Of a stretch of DNA of 64,000 nt, positions 6,946 to 19,298 are shown piece by piece (within the stretch, counting starts at the first letter, position 1; every line of letters starts with the position of its first letter). The stretch comes from Gammaproteobacteria bacterium. GTDB taxonomy: Bacteria > Pseudomonadota > Gammaproteobacteria > 21-64-14. The notes under the pieces are model-generated. The model made no database searches and was not told where the DNA came from. It was given only the letters and a program-made list of their open reading frames with translations. Where the stretch lies: contig JALUXX010000011.1 of the NCBI GenBank assembly GCA_027013145.1, positions 192,556-256,555 on the forward strand, given 5' to 3'. A program made the position numbers and the translations under genes.

Positions 6946-7755
6946 GTGAAGATCGCCTCCTGGAACGTGAACTCGCTGCGCGTGCGTCTGCCCCACGTGC
7001 TGCGCTGGCTCGAGGACGCGGCGCCCGACGTGGTGGGCCTGCAGGAGACCAAGCTGCCGGACGAGCGTTTCCCCGCCGCCGAGTTCGAGGCCGCGGGCTA
7101 TCGCGTCCTGTATTCGGGGCAGGCGACCTACAACGGCGTCGCCCTGCTCGCACGCGCGCCGCTCGAGGGCGCGGTGACCGGGCTCGAGGGCATGGAGGAC
7201 CCGCAACGGCGCGTGCTCGCCGCGACCTGCGCCGGGGTGCGGGTCTGGAACCTCTATGTCCCCAACGGCCAGGACGTCGACTCGGACAAGTACGCCTACA
7301 AGCTCGCCTGGCTCGAGCGCCTCGCCGACACGCTGGCGGCCGACCTGCGCCGCCACCCCGATCTGGTGGCGCTCGGCGATTTCAACATCGCCCCCGAGGA
7401 CCGCGACGTCCACGACCCCGAGCGCTGGCGCGGGCGGGTGCTGTGCTCGGAGCCCGAGCGCGCCGCCTTCCGCCGCCTGCTCGATCTCGGGCTGTGCGAC
7501 ACCTTCCGGCGCTTCGACCAGCCCGAGGCGCTGTTCAGTTGGTGGGACTACCGCGCCGCGGCCTTCCGGCGCAATCTCGGGCTGCGGATCGACCACATCC
7601 TCGCCAGCCCGTCGATGTGCGCCCGCTGCACCGCGGCGCACATCGACACGGGGCCGCGTGCCTGGGAACGCCCGTCCGACCATGCGCCGGTGGTGGCCGA
7701 GTTCGACCTCGGAGCCGGGACGGGCGGGTCCCCGGCCGGCGGGAAGGGGTCGTGA
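6946..7755 (+). CDS. xthA: exodeoxyribonuclease III
   Basis: [15 protein letters not shown] and QETK motifs, C-terminal SDHAPV. GTG start at 6946. Confidence 0.9.
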
Positions 7756-9371: not shown

Positions 9372-10010
9372 ATGCGCAGGATTCTGGTGCTGGACGCCCA
9401 AGGCGGCAGCGGGAAGAGCACGATCGCGACGAACCTGGCCGGGTTCTACGCCGTGGAGGGCGCCAACGTGGCCCTCGCGGACTTCGACCCGCGCGGCGTC
9501 GCGCTCGACTGGGCGGCGCGGCGCCCGCGGGCGCGCCCGCGCGTGCGCGCCATCGCCGCCGCAGCCGGGCCGTTCCGGGCGCCCCGCGGCACCGAGTACC
9601 TGATCATGGACGGCCCGGCGGGGGCGCACGGAGACGCGCTCGCGGCGCTGGTACGCCGCGGCGCCACCCTCCTCGTCCCGGTCCTGCCGGCGGCGGCGGC
9701 GGTACGCGCGGCGGCGCATTTCGTCGAGGAACTGCTGCTGGTCGGACGCGTCTCGCGCCGCGACCCGCACCTGGCGGTGGTCGCCAATCGCGTCCCGTCC
9801 GACGACGAACCCTTGCGCGGGCTCGAACGCTTCCTCGGACGGCTCGGCATCCCCTACGCCGCCACGCTGCGCGAGAGCGGAAACTACCGCCGCGCGGCGG
9901 ACAGCGGCCTCAGCCTGTTCGAACTCGCCCCCTCGCTCTCCGCGGCCGACCGGGAGCGGTGGCAACCGCTGCTGAACTGGCTGGAACGCGGGCGCCGGCG
10001 CGTCTGCTGA
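9372..10010 (+). CDS. ParA/MinD-like P-loop ATPase (orphan, deviant Walker A)
   Basis: MRRILVLDAQGGSGKSTIATNLAG deviant Walker A motif. Start at the internal Met. The upstream part of the ORF (9270..9371) has no support. Confidence 0.75.
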   Translation: MRRILVLDAQGGSGKSTIATNLAGFYAVEGANVALADFDPRGVALDWAARRPRARPRVRAIAAAAGPFRAPRGTEYLIMDGPAGAHGDALAALVRRGATLLVPVLPAAAAVRAAAHFVEELLLVGRVSRRDPHLAVVANRVPSDDEPLRGLERFLGRLGIPYAATLRESGNYRRAADSGLSLFELAPSLSAADRERWQPLLNWLERGRRRVC

Positions 10011-10016
10011 GCCGGC

Positions 10017-10886
10017 TCACGGCACCGCGATACAAGCGGGCAGGCCCGCCTCGAGGTCGGGGTAGCGCAGCTCGACGCCGAGTTCCTCGCGCAGGCGCCG
10101 GTTGTCGAGGCGGCGCGACTCTTCGAGATAGGAACGCATCGCGGCGCCGATGGCCCGGTCGGCCTCGGCGCGGGGAACCACCGGCGGGCGCGGCATCCCG
10201 AGGAGGTCGGCGACGCGGAAGAAGTAATCCGTCAGCGTGCTCGGGTGGCCGTCGGCGGCGTTGTACACCCGGCCGGGACGGCCGCGTTCGATCGCCGCGA
10301 GGCAGGCGGCGGCCAGGTCGACGGCGTGGATGCGATTGCTGAACGGCGAATCCTCCGGGCGCAACAGCGGCAGGCCGCGGCGGATGCGCTCGACCGGCAG
10401 GCGCCCGGGACCGTAGATCCCGGGCACGCGCAGGATCACGGCGGCGACGCCGCGGCGCCCGCACCAGCGGCCCAGTGCACGTTCGGCGGCGTAACGCCGG
10501 CGGGCGCGCGCGGTGCGCGGGGCCGGCGGCCGGTCCTCGTCGACCCAAGCCCCGCCGCAGTCGCCGTACACGCCGCTCGTGCTGATATAGACGAAACGCG
10601 CCGGCGGCGCGGGTTCGAGCAGGTGCAGCAGGGCCTCGACGCGGGGGTCGTGCGTCCCCGCGGCCGGGGGCGGGACGAGGCAGATCACCGTATCCGCACC
10701 GGCGATGCGCAGGTCCGGGTCCGGGGCGTCCAGATCGGCGCGCACTACCTCCACACCGCGCGCGGCGAGCGCCCCGGCGCGCCGGTCGGAACGCACGAGC
10801 GCACGCACCTGGTCGCCGCGCGCGAGCAGTGCGTCGGCGACGCGCCCACCGATGTCGCCGCAGCCGGCGATCAGCACACGGTTCAC
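10017..10886 (-). CDS. NAD-dependent epimerase/dehydratase family protein (SDR)
   Basis: N-terminal Rossmann motif VLIAGCGDIGGRV and SDR-like architecture. Confidence 0.8.
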   Translation of the reverse strand: MNRVLIAGCGDIGGRVADALLARGDQVRALVRSDRRAGALAARGVEVVRADLDAPDPDLRIAGADTVICLVPPPAAGTHDPRVEALLHLLEPAPPARFVYISTSGVYGDCGGAWVDEDRPPAPRTARARRRYAAERALGRWCGRRGVAAVILRVPGIYGPGRLPVERIRRGLPLLRPEDSPFSNRIHAVDLAAACLAAIERGRPGRVYNAADGHPSTLTDYFFRVADLLGMPRPPVVPRAEADRAIGAAMRSYLEESRRLDNRRLREELGVELRYPDLEAGLPACIAVP

Positions 10887-15271: not shown

Positions 15272-16204
15272 TCAGGCGCCGGCGTCGAACAGGTCCTGGA
15301 GGATCCGCGCGGCGCCGCGCGCAAGCAGCTCCTCCGCGAGGCGGCGCCCCAGCGCCGCGCCCTCGGCCGCCGGTCCGCGCACCTCGCCCTCGACCAGCTC
15401 GCTGCCGTCGGTGCGCCCGACCAGACCGCGCAGGTGCAGCGTCGGGCCGGCGAGCGTGGCGTGACCGGCGATCGGGACCTGACAGCCGCCGCCGAGCCGC
15501 GCCCCGAAGGCCCGCTCGGCGGCCACGCAGGCGGCGGTGGGCGCATCGTTCAGCGGCAGGATGCGTTCGAGCACGCGCACGTCGTCCGCCCGGCACTCGA
15601 TGCCGATCACCCCCTGCCCCACGGCCGGCAGGCTCTGGTCGGGGTCGAGCGGCGCCCGGATGCGCTCGCCCAGACCCAGCCGCCGCAGGCCCGCCGCCGC
15701 CAGCACGATGGCCTCGTACTCCCCGCGGTCGAGCTTCGCGAGGCGCGTCTGCACGTTGCCCCGCAGGTCGAGAATTCGCAGCCGCGGGCGGCGCGCGCGC
15801 AACTGACACGCCCGACGCAGGCTCGATGTCCCCACGCGGGCGCCGTCCGGCAGCGCCGCGAGCGATGGATAGCCCGAGACCAGGGCGTCGCGCGGGTCTT
15901 CGCGCGCCAGCACCACCGGCAGCACCAGTCCCTCGGGCAGTTCGGCGGGCACGTCCTTGAGGGAATGGACTGCGAGGTCGGCCTCGCCCTTGCGCAGACT
16001 CTCCTCGAGTTCCTTGAGGAACAGGCCCTTGCCGCCGATCTTCGCGAGCGGGCTGTCGAGGATGCGGTCGCCGCGGGTCTGCATCGGCAACAGCTCCACC
16101 CGCAGCCCGGGGTGGTGCTCCCGCAGCCGGTCGCGCACCCATCCGGCCTGCCACAGCGCCAGCGGGCTGCGGCGCGTGGCAATGCGCAGCAGGGACCCGC
16201 TCAC
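15272..16204 (-). CDS. hemC: hydroxymethylbilane synthase (porphobilinogen deaminase)
   Basis: [15 protein letters not shown] and dipyrromethane cofactor region. Full-length HemC. Confidence 0.92.
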
Positions 16205-16307
16205 GTGCCCGCCATCCGTAACCGAACCATATGATTTCCCGCGAGAACCCTGAAAGCCGCCCAGGCCGCGCCCATGCTATGCCGAGCCCGCCACGCTGGC
16301 AACTCAT

Positions 16308-16328
16308 CAAAGGGGACAGATTTATTTG
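16308..16328. repeat. left 21-bp inverted repeat (caaaggggacagatttatttg) flanking the RAYT gene
   Basis: Exact reverse complement of 17074..17094. Confidence 0.85.
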
Positions 16329-17023
16329 GCGCGCAGCTCGCGAGGTCGGTCGCCCGGCCTGCGGGGCTCGATGCGCCGCCCCGTGACCTGCTCTACGTCG
16401 TCGACGAAACGACCGTTTCCGGTCAACTGGCCGCGCTGTACCGCCTCCCGGATCAAGTCCCACTCGCCGTTCGGAATCGCCGCTCGCACGAACGCACTGT
16501 AGCGTTCGCGGCGCTGCTCGGGCGTTTCCCCCAACGACGTATAGCAGGGATCCTCGTCAATCCAGGATGATTCCTCCAGCCCCGCCTTGGCGCGGTAACT
16601 CGACCACCGGTATTCCTGCGGCGATGCCACCATGCGCGCGCGCACGGGATTCAGATCCACATAGCGGCAACAGGCCAGCAGGTAGGCCTCGGTTTGAACG
16701 GGGCTCGATTTGTACCGGCTTTCCCAAAGGGTCCCCCGTCGCCCCTCCAGCCGATTCACATGGCGCGTCTGCCGCCCGGCCAACCGCTTCATCAAACGAG
16801 CCAGCATCGCGACTTCGTCGGGTGGTTCGACAATCAGATGGACATGATTCGTCATCAGGCAATAGCCGTACACCTTGACGCCAAGTTCGATCTTCCAGCG
16901 CTTCAGGGTATCGAGGTAGTACCTGAAATCTCCTTCCCCAGCGAACACCGCTTGACGGTTGTGACCGCGTTGCACAATGTGATGCGCGCAATTCGGCACC
17001 ACCACCCTGCCTGTCCTTGGCAT
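16322..17023 (-). CDS. REP-associated tyrosine transposase (RAYT; IS200/IS605-type Y1 HUH TnpA-like)
   Basis: HUH motif HVHLIV and catalytic Tyr region YVDLNPVRARMV typical of TnpA_REP/RAYT proteins. Start at MPRTGRVVVPN. Confidence 0.85.
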   Translation of the reverse strand: MPRTGRVVVPNCAHHIVQRGHNRQAVFAGEGDFRYYLDTLKRWKIELGVKVYGYCLMTNHVHLIVEPPDEVAMLARLMKRLAGRQTRHVNRLEGRRGTLWESRYKSSPVQTEAYLLACCRYVDLNPVRARMVASPQEYRWSSYRAKAGLEESSWIDEDPCYTSLGETPEQRRERYSAFVRAAIPNGEWDLIREAVQRGQLTGNGRFVDDVEQVTGRRIEPRRPGDRPRELRAK

Positions 17024-17081
17024 AGGGGCTCCTCCCGCGTGACTCACGCGTCAGAATGCTAAACCGTAAGGCTCAAATAAA

Positions 17082-17121
17082 TCTGTCCCCTTTGGGAAGG
17101 GTCTGTCCCCTTTGGGAAGGG
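17082..17121. repeat. tandem direct repeat, 2 x 20 bp (tctgtcccctttgggaaggg)
   Basis: Two exact consecutive copies, overlapping the right inverted repeat and abutting the Yip1 stop codon. Confidence 0.9.
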
Positions 17122-17706
17122 TCACAACAGCTGGTTGCCGTACCCCCAGATGGCTACGCTGGCCATGAGCAGGGCCTCCAGCACCAGCACGCCGATGGCG
17201 AAGATCGAGCCGGAAACCCGAAGGCCCTCCTCTTTGCTGATGTTGAGGAAACAAGGCACCGCCAGATACAAGAGATACCCCGAATAAAGCAGGGCGGCCG
17301 CGCCCACGACGATGCAGACCCACACGACCGGGTACAGCGCGACCAGGCCGCTGATGAACATCGGTGTCGCGATGTAGGCGGCGAATACCACACAGCGGCG
17401 CAGAGCCGGTCTCTGGGGATAACCCCTCGCCAACCAGTGGATCACCTTCCCCATGAAGACCACCGCCGCGAGGATCGCAACGTAGAACACGGCTCCCAAA
17501 ATGGCGGCGGTAGTCTGGCTGAGGACGATCGTTTTCCCGCCAAGGTCCCAGCCGTGCCCCGTCGTTCCGATAAAGGCGCTGACCACGGGGATGGCGGCCA
17601 GCAATAACACATGGTGGCAGTAACAGTGTGAGACGCTCTCGTTTTCTTCTGCAATGGCATGCATCTCGTGATCAGGATGCGTCAGAAGTCCGCGGACATG
17701 GCTCAT
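17122..17706 (-). CDS. Yip1 family membrane protein
   Basis: MSHVRGLLTHPDHEMHAIAEENESVSHCYCHHVLLLAAIP... and five predicted TM segments match the conserved gammaproteobacterial Yip1/DUF1282 family. Confidence 0.75.
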   Translation of the reverse strand: MSHVRGLLTHPDHEMHAIAEENESVSHCYCHHVLLLAAIPVVSAFIGTTGHGWDLGGKTIVLSQTTAAILGAVFYVAILAAVVFMGKVIHWLARGYPQRPALRRCVVFAAYIATPMFISGLVALYPVVWVCIVVGAAALLYSGYLLYLAVPCFLNISKEEGLRVSGSIFAIGVLVLEALLMASVAIWGYGNQLL

Positions 17707-18082
17707 ACCCCTTCCCCCGTCGAAACGCCGCATCGGCAACAATCGTAGTATAGCCAGCAAAGTCTGTAGGGGTACATCGACTACAGGGCCGTCCCGAGTG
17801 CACCGGATCCCCGGCCGGTAAGCCCGTAGACCCATTGGTACGTGATCGCTGAGCGCGGATTCCCACTGCTTCCGAGCGGTCTTTCGCTCGGCTTCTTCGG
17901 CGACCGTCGGAATGAAGGGCGGTGTCCGTGCGTCCTGAACTGTAATGCCGATCGCCGGCAGGCCGCGAACCGGCGTGTTCCCGGATGAGGGTCCGCCGGG
18001 GTTGCATCCGGGCTGCGGGATCCCGCCCGCCAGTTACACAGGTCTCTACGATGCCTATCGACCGCAAAGGGGTAGCGCCGAA

Positions 18083-18604
18083 GTGAAGCGCGGAGGATGG
18101 TTCGGCGCGGCCGCGGCGATGTTGCTGGCGGCGGTCGCGGGCACGCCGGCGGCGGGCGCCGCGGGGGCGGTACCGCAGGTCCGTGATCTCGCCGCGCTCG
18201 GGCGGGCGGCGGCGGCGCGCCGGGTGCCGATCGTCCTGGAATTCGCCGCCAGCGACTGCCGCTACTGCCGCGAACTGGAACGCGACGTGCTCGTGCCGAT
18301 GCGCGTGAGCGGCGATTATCGCGACAAGGCGCTGATCCGGCGGATCGAGATCGACACCGGCGCGACGGTGCGCGACTTCGGCGGGCGCCCGGTGGCGGCC
18401 GCCGCGCTGGCGCGGCGCTACGGGGTCGAGGTGACTCCGGTGGTGGTCCTGCTCGGTCCCGGCGGCCGCGAACTGGTCCCGCGCCTGGTCGGGATCGCCA
18501 ACCCGGATTTCTATCCCGGCGAGCTCGACGCCGCGATCAGCCGCGCGCGGAACCGGTTGCGCGCTGCAACAGGCGCCGTAGCCGCGGCTGGTGGCGGCGG
18601 CTGA
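18083..18604 (+). CDS. periplasmic thioredoxin-fold protein (CxxC: SDCRYC), SoxW/DUF255-like
   Basis: Signal peptide MKRGGWFGAAAAMLLAAVAG (GTG start) then a thioredoxin-like domain with a C-R-Y-C motif. The 3' end overlaps the algR 3' end by 68 nt. Confidence 0.65.
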   Translation: MKRGGWFGAAAAMLLAAVAGTPAAGAAGAVPQVRDLAALGRAAAARRVPIVLEFAASDCRYCRELERDVLVPMRVSGDYRDKALIRRIEIDTGATVRDFGGRPVAAAALARRYGVEVTPVVVLLGPGGRELVPRLVGIANPDFYPGELDAAISRARNRLRAATGAVAAAGGGG

Positions 18605-19298
18605 CTTCCAGGCACACGTCCACGCCGTCCACCCGTGCGCACACGCGCCCCTCGGGGTCGCGATCGAGCCCGCTGAAGAAGGCGCGCGCGACGAGGGCGT
18701 TGCGGTGGATGCGCACGAAGCGCTCGCCGAATTCGCGCTCCAGCGCCGTGAGGCTCTCCTCGATCAGCAGGGCGTTTCCGTCCACATAGACCGTCACGTA
18801 TTTGTCCGCGGCCCGCAGGCAGCGCACCTCCTCGACGGGGACCAGGGTCAGGCTGCCGCGCACCCGCGCGCAGAGGTGACTGCGCGCCGCGGCCCCCGCT
18901 TCGGCGCGCTCATCGCCGCGCAGCGCCTCGAGTTGGGCGCGTGTGACGTGGCGCGTGCGGGCGAGCGCGGCGGCCAGGCGTTCGCGCCGGATGGGCTTGA
19001 GCAGGTAGTCGACCGCATGCGCCTCGAAAGCCTCCAGGGCGTGATCGCCGTAGGCGGTCGTGAAGATCACGGCGGGGGGCGCGGGCAGGGTCGCGAGGTG
19101 GCGGGCCGCCTCGAGCCCGTCCATGCCGGGCATGCGGATGTCGAGCAACAGCACCTCGGGGGCGAGTTCGTCGGCGCGCAGGATCGCCTCACGCCCGTCG
19201 GCGGCCTCGCCGACCACGGTGTAGCCGCCGAGTTCGGCGAGCAGGGTGCGCAGACGCCGCCGCGCCGGGGCCTCGTCGTCGGCGATCAGGACGTTCAT
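18537..19298 (-). CDS. algR: LytTR-family response regulator AlgR
   Basis: Receiver domain MNVLIADDE...DIRMPGMDGLE and C-terminal LytTR DNA-binding domain. Adjacent to algZ, as in Pseudomonas. Confidence 0.9.
   Translation of the reverse strand: MNVLIADDEAPARRRLRTLLAELGGYTVVGEAADGREAILRADELAPEVLLLDIRMPGMDGLEAARHLATLPAPPAVIFTTAYGDHALEAFEAHAVDYLLKPIRRERLAAALARTRHVTRAQLEALRGDERAEAGAAARSHLCARVRGSLTLVPVEEVRCLRAADKYVTVYVDGNALLIEESLTALEREFGERFVRIHRNALVARAFFSGLDRDPEGRVCARVDGVDVCLEVSRRHQPRLRRLLQRATGSARG

Follow-up and report, generated by a model that had tools for sequence, protein, structure and literature searches.

A transposase gene bracketed by perfect inverted repeats lies between hemC and an algR-like gene

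We analyzed a 64,000-nucleotide stretch of a Gammaproteobacteria bacterium assembly (contig JALUXX010000011.1, positions 192,556 to 256,555; the whole stretch is called the window here), with a focus on a small transposase-encoding element located between hemC and an algR-like gene. The element comprises one gene for a 233-amino-acid protein (16322..17023 on the minus strand, ATG to TAA) and two 21-bp repeats that bracket it. The downstream (3') repeat, which reads CAAAGGGGACAGATTTATTTG on the plus strand, occupies 16308..16328, and its outer end forms the hemC-side junction of the insertion. Its exact reverse complement, the upstream (5') repeat, occupies 17074..17094. The two copies match at 21 of 21 positions, bearing out the perfect inverted repeat described in an initial annotation made from the sequence alone, and we refer to them as terminal inverted repeats (TIRs). 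The inner 7 nt of the 3' TIR overlap the final Lys codon and the TAA stop codon of the transposase gene. A 50-nt leader (17024..17073, minus strand) extends from the ATG to the upstream TIR and contains the palindrome CGCGTGA-G-TCACGCG and the ribosome-binding site GGGAGGAG.

The initial annotation had interpreted this arrangement as a RAYT/REPtron, in which a gene for a REP-associated tyrosine transposase (RAYT) is flanked by repetitive extragenic palindromic (REP) sequences. Our findings indicate that the element is probably a TIRtron composed of a TIRYT gene (a RAYT relative of TnpAY1 subclass 2.1, or Bertels Group 1), perfect 21-bp TIRs, and a GGGGWSAS motif. TIRtrons and TIRYTs were defined by Di Nocera, De Gregorio & Rocco (2013, BMC Genomics 14:522; PMC3733652). 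The element is a member of this known, little-studied kind, and its label should be TIRtron rather than RAYT/REPtron.

The transposase resembles class 2 Y1/HUH enzymes related to RAYTs

Judging from its sequence, the protein is a Y1/HUH enzyme of the RAYT-related class 2 (Y...NP) with an intact active site. It matched Pfam Y1_Tnp at 53.8 bits (cut-off, 23), supporting the Y1-HUH gene with HVHLIV and YVDLNPV motifs that had been proposed to lie between hemC and algR. The best named family was NCBIfam REP_Tyr_transpos (NF047646), with a score of 75.9 bits just under the cut-off of 80, and some homologs carry the JGI name "REP-associated tyrosine transposase"; the score for NCBIfam transpos_IS200 was 27 bits versus a cut-off of 55. 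Recognizable motifs included NHVHLIV (N59 and H60-V-H62), W100-E, Y121VDLNPV, and W140-S-S (WSSY), with H60-V-H62 and Y121 aligning with the catalytic residues of the TnpA proteins of IS200 and IS608. Across an alignment of 47 homologs, H62, W100, Y121, N125, P126, S141, and S142 were invariant and H60 was present in at least 90%, so that the catalytic residues H60, H62, and Y121, which the initial annotation had left to alignment, are in place.

An AlphaFold (AF2) model of the protein (pLDDT of 86 and pTM of 0.86) had as its top match in the PDB 4ER8_A (E value of 1e-7; TM score of 0.70 on the target), followed by the TnpA proteins of IS608, ISDra2, and IS200. 4ER8 is the Escherichia coli REP-associated tyrosine transposase (TnpA_REP) with a REP hairpin bound; phmmer did not recover it at an E value of ≤1. 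The C-terminal extension is alpha-helical (residues ~130 to 221) and without a recognizable Pfam domain. The proposed RAYT type therefore held for class 2 membership (Y...NP) and the closest structure, and gave way to subclass 2.1 and TIRYT at the level of family, where the protein scored under the NCBIfam RAYT cut-off.

The flanking repeats differ from REPs, and one carries a recent tandem duplication

Within the 64 kb, the 21-mer matched only at the two TIRs even when 3 mismatches were allowed, and no match was expected by chance (100 shuffles). The next-best match in the window, at 14 of 21 positions, was a copy of the tandem described below, leading us to reject a third TIR beyond the neighboring Yip1 gene that would have made Yip1 internal cargo. 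We also rejected CAAAGGGG at 18065 as a TIR; it is the ribosome-binding site of the thioredoxin-fold gene and is not kept as a TIR in L138, a related locus introduced below. A single TIR is not palindromic, and its minimum free energies of folding (-0.2 and -1.0 kcal/mol) were worse than those of shuffled sequences (z of about +1.7). REPs, in contrast, are palindromes that each form a hairpin of 20 to 40 nt. A GT[AG]G foot is a feature of REPs (PMC6006769), and neither GTAG nor GTGG occurs in CAAAGGGGACAGATTTATTTG or its complement. The proposal that REPs flank the gene was thus not upheld, as the repeats are not palindromic, lack GT[AG]G, and are limited to these two copies within the 64 kb. 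GGGGACAG within the TIR fits the GGGGWSAS motif.

As originally described, the upstream TIR is extended by an exact 2 x 20-bp tandem (17082..17121) that starts directly after the Yip1 stop codon. TCTGTCCCCTTTGGGAAGGG occurs twice without a mismatch (17082-17101 and 17102-17121), and the unit reads CCCTTCCCAAAGGGGACAGA in the orientation of the gene, so that the duplicated unit combines the 13 outermost nt of this TIR with 7 nt of flank. The flank and TIR also form a weak terminator-like hairpin with a T-run directly after Yip1. Three independent metagenome contigs from the organism of the window all have the tandem, without any difference, and it is thus fixed there. At the sister locus L138, only one copy is found, TGA-CCCTCCCCAAAAGGGGACAGATTTATTTG, and the tandem is absent. 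Since L138 has a single TIR head, the tandem is younger than the split from L138; it is a recent local, lineage-specific duplication and not a conserved part of the TIRtron. The earlier idea that the tandem is an enzyme substrate receives some circumstantial support from the recurrent heads described below, even though the tandem itself is not conserved.

TIRs accompany TIRYT homologs in unrelated neighborhoods

Homologs of the transposase with 57 to 86% identity occur in unrelated neighborhoods across several phyla, and nearly all have the TIR motif upstream and its complement over the stop codon. Five of them (P0002, 86% identity; P0003, 81%; P0018, 76%; P0039 and P0068, both 64%) lie in five different neighborhoods, and all five have AAAGGGGACAGATTTATTT upstream of the ATG. 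A near-intact AAATAAATCTGTCCCC covers the Lys-TAA gene end in each of the five except the Thiocystis homolog, in which the 3' copy is degenerate. Considering distinct full-length genes, 12 of 13 had recognizable TIRs at both ends. The homolog motif spans ~22 bp (rrAAAAGGGGACAGATTTATTTw). The distance from its GGGG run to the ATG ranged from 30 to 112 nt, and the leader varied in both length and sequence; we therefore rejected a conserved leader hairpin or promoter between the TIR and the ATG. As TIRs accompany homologs in unrelated neighborhoods, the repeats are the ends of a gene-linked unit, and these comparisons show that the TIRs belong to the gene and not to the locus.

Plasmids and phages rarely carried a TIRYT homolog: 37 of 72,556 plasmid records had one, exceeding 60% identity in a single case, and 1 phage record did. 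The sole record above 60% identity in the plasmid collection was L139 (NZ_CP116719.1, Pseudomonas aeruginosa strain 2858 "plasmid unnamed1", 1-24299). It contains an orphan toxin-immunity array of the CdiA/TPS type with DUF637, deaminase, EndoU, glutamine deamidase, and non-specific endonuclease domains. Among its cassettes are three full TIRYT genes and 16 TIR cores (AAAGGGGACAGATTTATTTTCCCTAC), some of them in gene-less doublets of ~165 bp, and TIRtrons may punctuate or shuffle the toxin cassettes at this locus. Other TIRYT homologs lie beside SIR2_2 and DUF87/HerA-like genes (L009, 6683-9588), a gene for a Shedu SduA_C protein (L012, 8252-9460), and HigB and HipA modules (L004, 7111-9513). 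Such defense and toxin-antitoxin neighbors suggest a preference of TIRYTs for variable "island" regions. In L011, a full TIRYT gene is accompanied 2.4 kb upstream by a truncated duplicate consisting of the TIR, the leader, and the first 42 codons (7510-7699 and 9940-10711).

The TIR motif is dispersed as gene-less singles, doublets, and clusters

Scanning 185,579 species genomes with the 16-mer GGGGACAGATTTATTT yielded at least 120 matching stretches (L014-L133), and a metagenome scan with the exact 21-mer likewise yielded at least 120 (L140-L259); the counts below refer to the matches listed from these scans. Hosts of the 16-mer included Pseudomonas, Stutzerimonas, Ectothiorhodospira, Thioalkalivibrio, Nitrospirota, Desulfobacterota, Acidobacteriota, and Aerophobetes, among others. 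At least 209 core-motif copies were found; of the 201 with 25 nt of sequence available on both sides, 200 had a unique context. The logo of these dispersed copies is rrAAAA-GGGGACAGATTTATTT-w. The exact 21-mer occurred in at least 203 copies in metagenomes, showing that the repeat is not confined to the locus in the window, a point that the initial annotation had left to a wider search. The motif was much more often gene-less than gene-linked, with 100 of the 120 listed genome stretches and 98 of the 120 listed metagenome stretches lacking a TIRYT-like coding sequence. A search of the literature with the motif string returned no prokaryotic match.

In these other genomes, copies of the repeat occurred as singles, doublets, and clusters. 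Pairs no more than 150 nt apart in the genome matches were oriented inward, as around the gene, in 34 cases, outward in 1, and directly in 16. Among metagenome doublets, 40 were inward and 1 was outward, for a genome and metagenome total of 74 to 2. Spacers of 6 nt and 10 nt accounted for 28 of the 40 exact-21-mer doublets, suggesting two types of propagating mini-elements of ~48 and ~52 nt. The doublets fold as strong hairpins (z of -6.4 and -12.5). Because the last bases of the coding sequence remain beside the right arm of the doublet in L008, this doublet is an internal-deletion derivative of a TIRtron. The TIR family behaves functionally like REPINs (REP-based hairpin doublets) or bacterial interspersed mosaic elements (BIMEs), with arms that are not REPs.

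Partial copies of the motif were concentrated near full TIRs. In the listed genome stretches, the density of GGGGACA was 1.07 per kb up to 100 nt from a TIR and 0.128 per kb elsewhere, an 8-fold difference. Truncated heads in the same orientation (xAAAGGGGACA with or without G or GA) lay on the outer side in 17 to 18 cases versus 4 on the inner side, and the outer copies were 13 to 60 nt from full TIRs. Head breakpoints cluster 7 to 9 nt into the motif, after GGGGACA, GGGGACAG, or GGGGACAGA, and the duplication in the window ends at GGGGACAGA. These breakpoints may mark the point of cleavage or rejoining. A BIME-like cluster was also observed in a high-GC host, on a metagenome contig of 72% GC unrelated to the window (L180, 2950-3080). 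It directly follows the TAA of a gene and contains a truncated head, a doublet with a 10-nt spacer, and a 28-nt tandem of the right arm.

The transposase gene and a foreign Yip1 gene were inserted next to a native thioredoxin-fold gene

The flanks of the element match the Pseudomonas gene order argH-algZ-algR-hemC-hemD-hemX-hemY. Cotranscription of algZR and hemCD has been reported in PAO1 (PMC5790918), and the initial annotation had described algR of Pseudomonas as partly cotranscribed with hemC. The element is flanked on one side by hemC (15272-16204, minus strand). On the other side, outside the TIRs and in the same orientation as hemC and the transposase gene, is a gene for a 194-amino-acid, YohC-like inner-membrane protein with a Yip1 domain (17122..17706, minus strand; Pfam Yip1, 119 bits). 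Its upstream region (17707..17930; GC content of 0.54 to 0.67, under the host level) is followed by a thioredoxin-fold gene (trx; 18083-18604, plus strand) with a CRYC motif and matches to Pfam Thioredoxin_7/2, an algR-like gene for a LytTR response regulator (18537-19298, minus strand), a histidine kinase gene, and argH. Both the Yip1 gene and the CxxC thioredoxin-fold gene had been correctly recognized alongside the element. The thioredoxin-fold and algR-like genes are convergent with a 68-bp overlap (18537-18604) that is also annotated in L137 and L138. No Rfam family or tRNA integration target was detected in the window.

Comparison with related loci separated the native from the foreign genes. 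In L137, where the thioredoxin protein is 80% identical, the order is hemX-hemD-hemC, 254 bp, trx, and algR, with neither Yip1 nor TIRYT, indicating that the three genes are not universal at this position in relatives. The window aligns with L137 from hemC onward and across the spacer up to 16305, where the homology stops 2 nt before the TIR. By this alignment, L137 represents the empty site with an ancestral hemC-trx spacer of 254 bp. L138 is a closer relative (Yip1 protein 92% identical) and has the order algR-trx-Yip1-TIR-TIRYT. A native candidate promoter for hemC, TTGCCA-17-TAGCAT (16274..16302, minus strand), remained intact 5 bp from the TIR. The corresponding site in L137 is TTGCCT-17-TAGGAT, and its conservation indicates that the insertion spared the promoter candidate. 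No other sigma-70-like match was found in the region of the element.

The lowest GC content of the 64-kb window is at 16 to 18 kb (0.61 to 0.64 versus ~0.72 overall). The transposase gene and Yip1 have a GC content at third codon positions (GC3) of 0.74 and 0.79, respectively, versus 0.87 to 0.93 for native genes, including the thioredoxin-fold gene. On the basis of their absence from the empty site and their low GC3, the transposase gene and Yip1 are foreign DNA of ~1.6 kb inserted into the hemC-trx spacer. The thioredoxin-fold gene is native, since it has host GC3 and is present in L137, and it therefore separated algR from hemC before the insertion. Likewise, the presence of the trx-algR overlap in L137 and L138 indicates that a gene on the opposite strand had already split algR and hemC in this lineage. 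The three-gene insertion originally envisaged is thus reduced to two foreign genes, of which Yip1 lies outside the repeats.

The trx-side junction lies somewhere in the Yip1 upstream region. MAFFT and local alignment with L137 gave nothing above shuffles at this junction, and arithmetic with the 254-bp spacer gives an estimate of about 17930. As this junction is beyond Yip1, the insertion was not a simple TIR-to-TIR transposition, or two events took place. The Yip1 protein is 61 to 69% identical to YohC of Erwinia, Pantoea, and Gallaecimonas. Its closest non-syntenic homolog, a Yip1/YohC protein of 80% identity (L134, 3872-12419), is encoded in a thicket of mobile elements that includes IS66 TnpB and DDE genes, three consecutive phage integrase genes, and IS21 IstB fragments. 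This setting is consistent with Yip1 being horizontally mobile cargo. No TIR was found at loci of the 80% homolog, and we rejected a linkage of Yip1 with TIRtrons elsewhere because Yip1 is absent from five other neighborhoods of TIRYT homologs. Yip1 is a co-resident foreign gene and not a component of the element, whether co-inserted or separately inserted.

Proposed mechanism and competing explanations

Y1 transposases act on single-stranded DNA (ssDNA) hairpins. By analogy with TnpA_REP and IS608, the enzyme (H60, H62, and Y121) would recognize the TIR, and its likely substrate would be a stem formed by two inverted TIRs pairing on ssDNA, similarly to REPIN hairpins for RAYTs. Cleavage near the GGGGACA head would occur via Y121 and a HUH-bound metal and be followed by rejoining, a reaction that would mobilize both the TIRtron and, acting in trans, TIR doublets without a gene. 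Truncated heads, including the 2 x 20-bp tandem in the window, may then have arisen where cleavage or rejoining went wrong a few bases past GGGGACA. In a more far-reaching form of this model, TIRYT and TIR would form an ssDNA transposition system that operates across phyla today, cuts a few bases after GGGGACA, leaves heads as footprints, and occasionally overruns one end to carry cargo (like IS91/ISCR). A one-end overrun would explain the arrival of Yip1 with the TIRtron and the presence of only one junction at a TIR, and we hold this form to have a slim chance of being correct.

Several observations weigh against the TIRtron assignment and mechanism. The Y motif is YVDLNP, with D, and not the Y[IV][EH]LNP listed for subclass 2.1, and the C-terminal helix-turn-helix domains of this subclass (Bac_DnaA_C, HTH_23, and HTH_28) were not detectable by Pfam. 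A single TIR lacks a hairpin, while the Y1 enzymes characterized so far recognize hairpins. No TIR copies beyond the two were found in the 64 kb at ≤3 mismatches, so that the element appears as a lone copy within this stretch and its activity in this host is putative. The trx-side junction is beyond Yip1 and not at the upstream TIR. Finally, no biochemical study of any TIRYT was found in the searchable literature, and TIR binding and cleavage are proposed here by analogy with other Y1 enzymes.

The question of whether the TIRtron catalyzed its own insertion can be separated from that of its identity. The ~1.6-kb block of Yip1 and TIRYT may have entered as a fragment of an island or foreign chromosome through recombination or the machinery of another element, so that the TIRtron was a passive passenger and may be inactive here. 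The position of the trx-side junction and the solitary state of the TIR pair in the 64 kb would fit such an origin, as would the equally foreign GC3 of Yip1, the location of its 80% homolog among IS66, IS21, and integrase genes, and the frequent occurrence of TIRYT genes in variable, defense, or toxin-antitoxin-rich regions. However, the hemC-side junction is within 2 nt of the tip of the TIR, which is unlikely for an unrelated breakpoint, and the open reading frame, the catalytic residues, and both TIRs are intact, with the TIRs perfect. We consider passive entry possible, although the less likely course, and it bears on how the insertion arose rather than on what the element is, which could be a TIRtron in either case.

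Two other explanations address the nature of the repeats themselves. If the gene were domesticated, the repeats could act in cis on expression without any DNA cleavage, with the upstream copy as an operator or UP-like site for autoregulation and the downstream copy and doublets as terminators or mRNA-stabilizing hairpins. The upstream TIR directly precedes the leader and the likely promoter region, the downstream TIR is at the stop codon, many doublets are long perfect hairpins followed by T-runs just after stop codons, and a weak terminator-like hairpin follows Yip1. Such a role leaves unexplained the invariant, intact HUH/Tyr active site, the identical 22-mer in at least 200 unrelated contexts in many phyla, the 74:2 orientation bias among listed matches that mirrors the gene flanks, and the gene-less doublets retaining the coding-sequence end, as in L008; we regard it as improbable. 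Less probable still is the canonical REPtron, with a RAYT, 21-mers acting as REPs, the tandem as a BIME-like array, and high-copy palindromic REPs spread through the genome. Its appeal derives from a class 2 protein (Y...NP) structurally closest to E. coli TnpA_REP, from REP_Tyr_transpos as the best named family and the JGI naming of some homologs, and from flanking repeats that are inverted as in REPtrons. It conflicts with an NCBIfam score under the curated cut-off, with a 21-mer that is neither palindromic nor folding, lacks a GT[AG]G foot, and recurs nowhere else in the 64 kb at ≤3 mismatches, with the missing tandem in L138, and with the finding of Quentin et al. that subclass 2.1 has no REPs (PMC6006769).

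Implications of the locus

TIRYTs (subclass 2.1) form the second-largest group of Y1/HUH transposase relatives. Our analysis reveals no new kind of system; the element is an ordinary member of a known arrangement and a clean example with empty, filled, and duplicated states. At this locus, an intact gene with perfect TIRs can be compared with a matched empty counterpart and with a sister locus, and the TIR head was duplicated recently. The locus further draws attention to one 22-bp motif that occurs in several phyla and whose doublets fold into REPIN-like hairpins, providing a concrete candidate substrate and a suggested cleavage region. For annotation, a likely mislabel is corrected from REP/RAYT to TIRtron, and the break in hemC-algR synteny becomes two-layered, in that foreign DNA was inserted later beside a thioredoxin-fold gene that is native.

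Comparison with known systems

The TnpA proteins of the IS200/IS605 family (IS608 and ISDra2) share the Y1/HUH fold and aligning catalytic residues with the protein described here. In contrast, they are ~150 amino acids long with a Y...Q motif, act with subterminal hairpins, and are often accompanied by tnpB. We rejected an IS200/IS605 identity on the basis of the score of 27 versus 55 bits, the Y...NP motif, the length of 233 amino acids, the TIRs, and the absence of a tnpB partner at the locus.

The E. coli REPtron (4ER8) has the same catalytic fold, inverted cognate repeats that bracket the gene, and repeats elsewhere as doublets and clusters. Each of its REPs forms a palindrome on its own and has a GT[AG]G foot, two properties that the TIRs lack, and the protein in the window is ~70 amino acids longer than TnpA_REP and 11% identical to it. 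Similarly, in the Pseudomonas REPIN-RAYT system of Bertels and Rainey, gene-less hairpin doublets are far more numerous than the gene and are built from the repeat that flanks it, but REPIN arms are lineage-specific REP palindromes of Group 2 and 3 RAYTs. One near-identical 22-mer common to several phyla implies horizontal spread of the TIR family and not the long vertical co-residence of REPINs.

Subclass 2.1 is characterized by NHVH, W[EQ], Y[IV][EH]LNP, an SS tail motif, and a median length of 238 amino acids (Quentin, Siguier, Chandler & Fichant 2018; PMC6006769). It is REP-less and probably corresponds to the TIRYTs of Di Nocera et al. (PMC6006769) and is equivalent to the Group 1 RAYTs of Bertels (PMC5581495). 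The protein in the window shares with this subclass NHVH, W-E, Y...LNP, WSSY, a comparable length (233 versus a median of 238 amino acids), a C-terminal extension, the lack of REPs, and a patchy distribution that would fit horizontal transfer. It differs in YVDLNP, the form listed for subclass 2.3, and the assignment to subclass 2.1 is by motifs.

TIRtrons have RAYT-like genes between long TIRs, many of which contain GGGGWSAS (PMC3733652; the motif is also given in PMC6006769). Their 3' TIR can overlap the gene, and some genomes contain TIRs as singles, dimers, and groups (PMC3733652). The element in the window differs in nothing essential, being apparently solitary within 64 kb, with a 20-bp tandem duplication of the TIR head and a foreign Yip1 gene adjoining. 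It shares with TIRtrons the Y1/HUH gene, long TIRs unrelated to GTAG REPs, the GGGGWSAS motif (GGGGACAG), and a 3' TIR over the gene end, a likeness of motif and arrangement.

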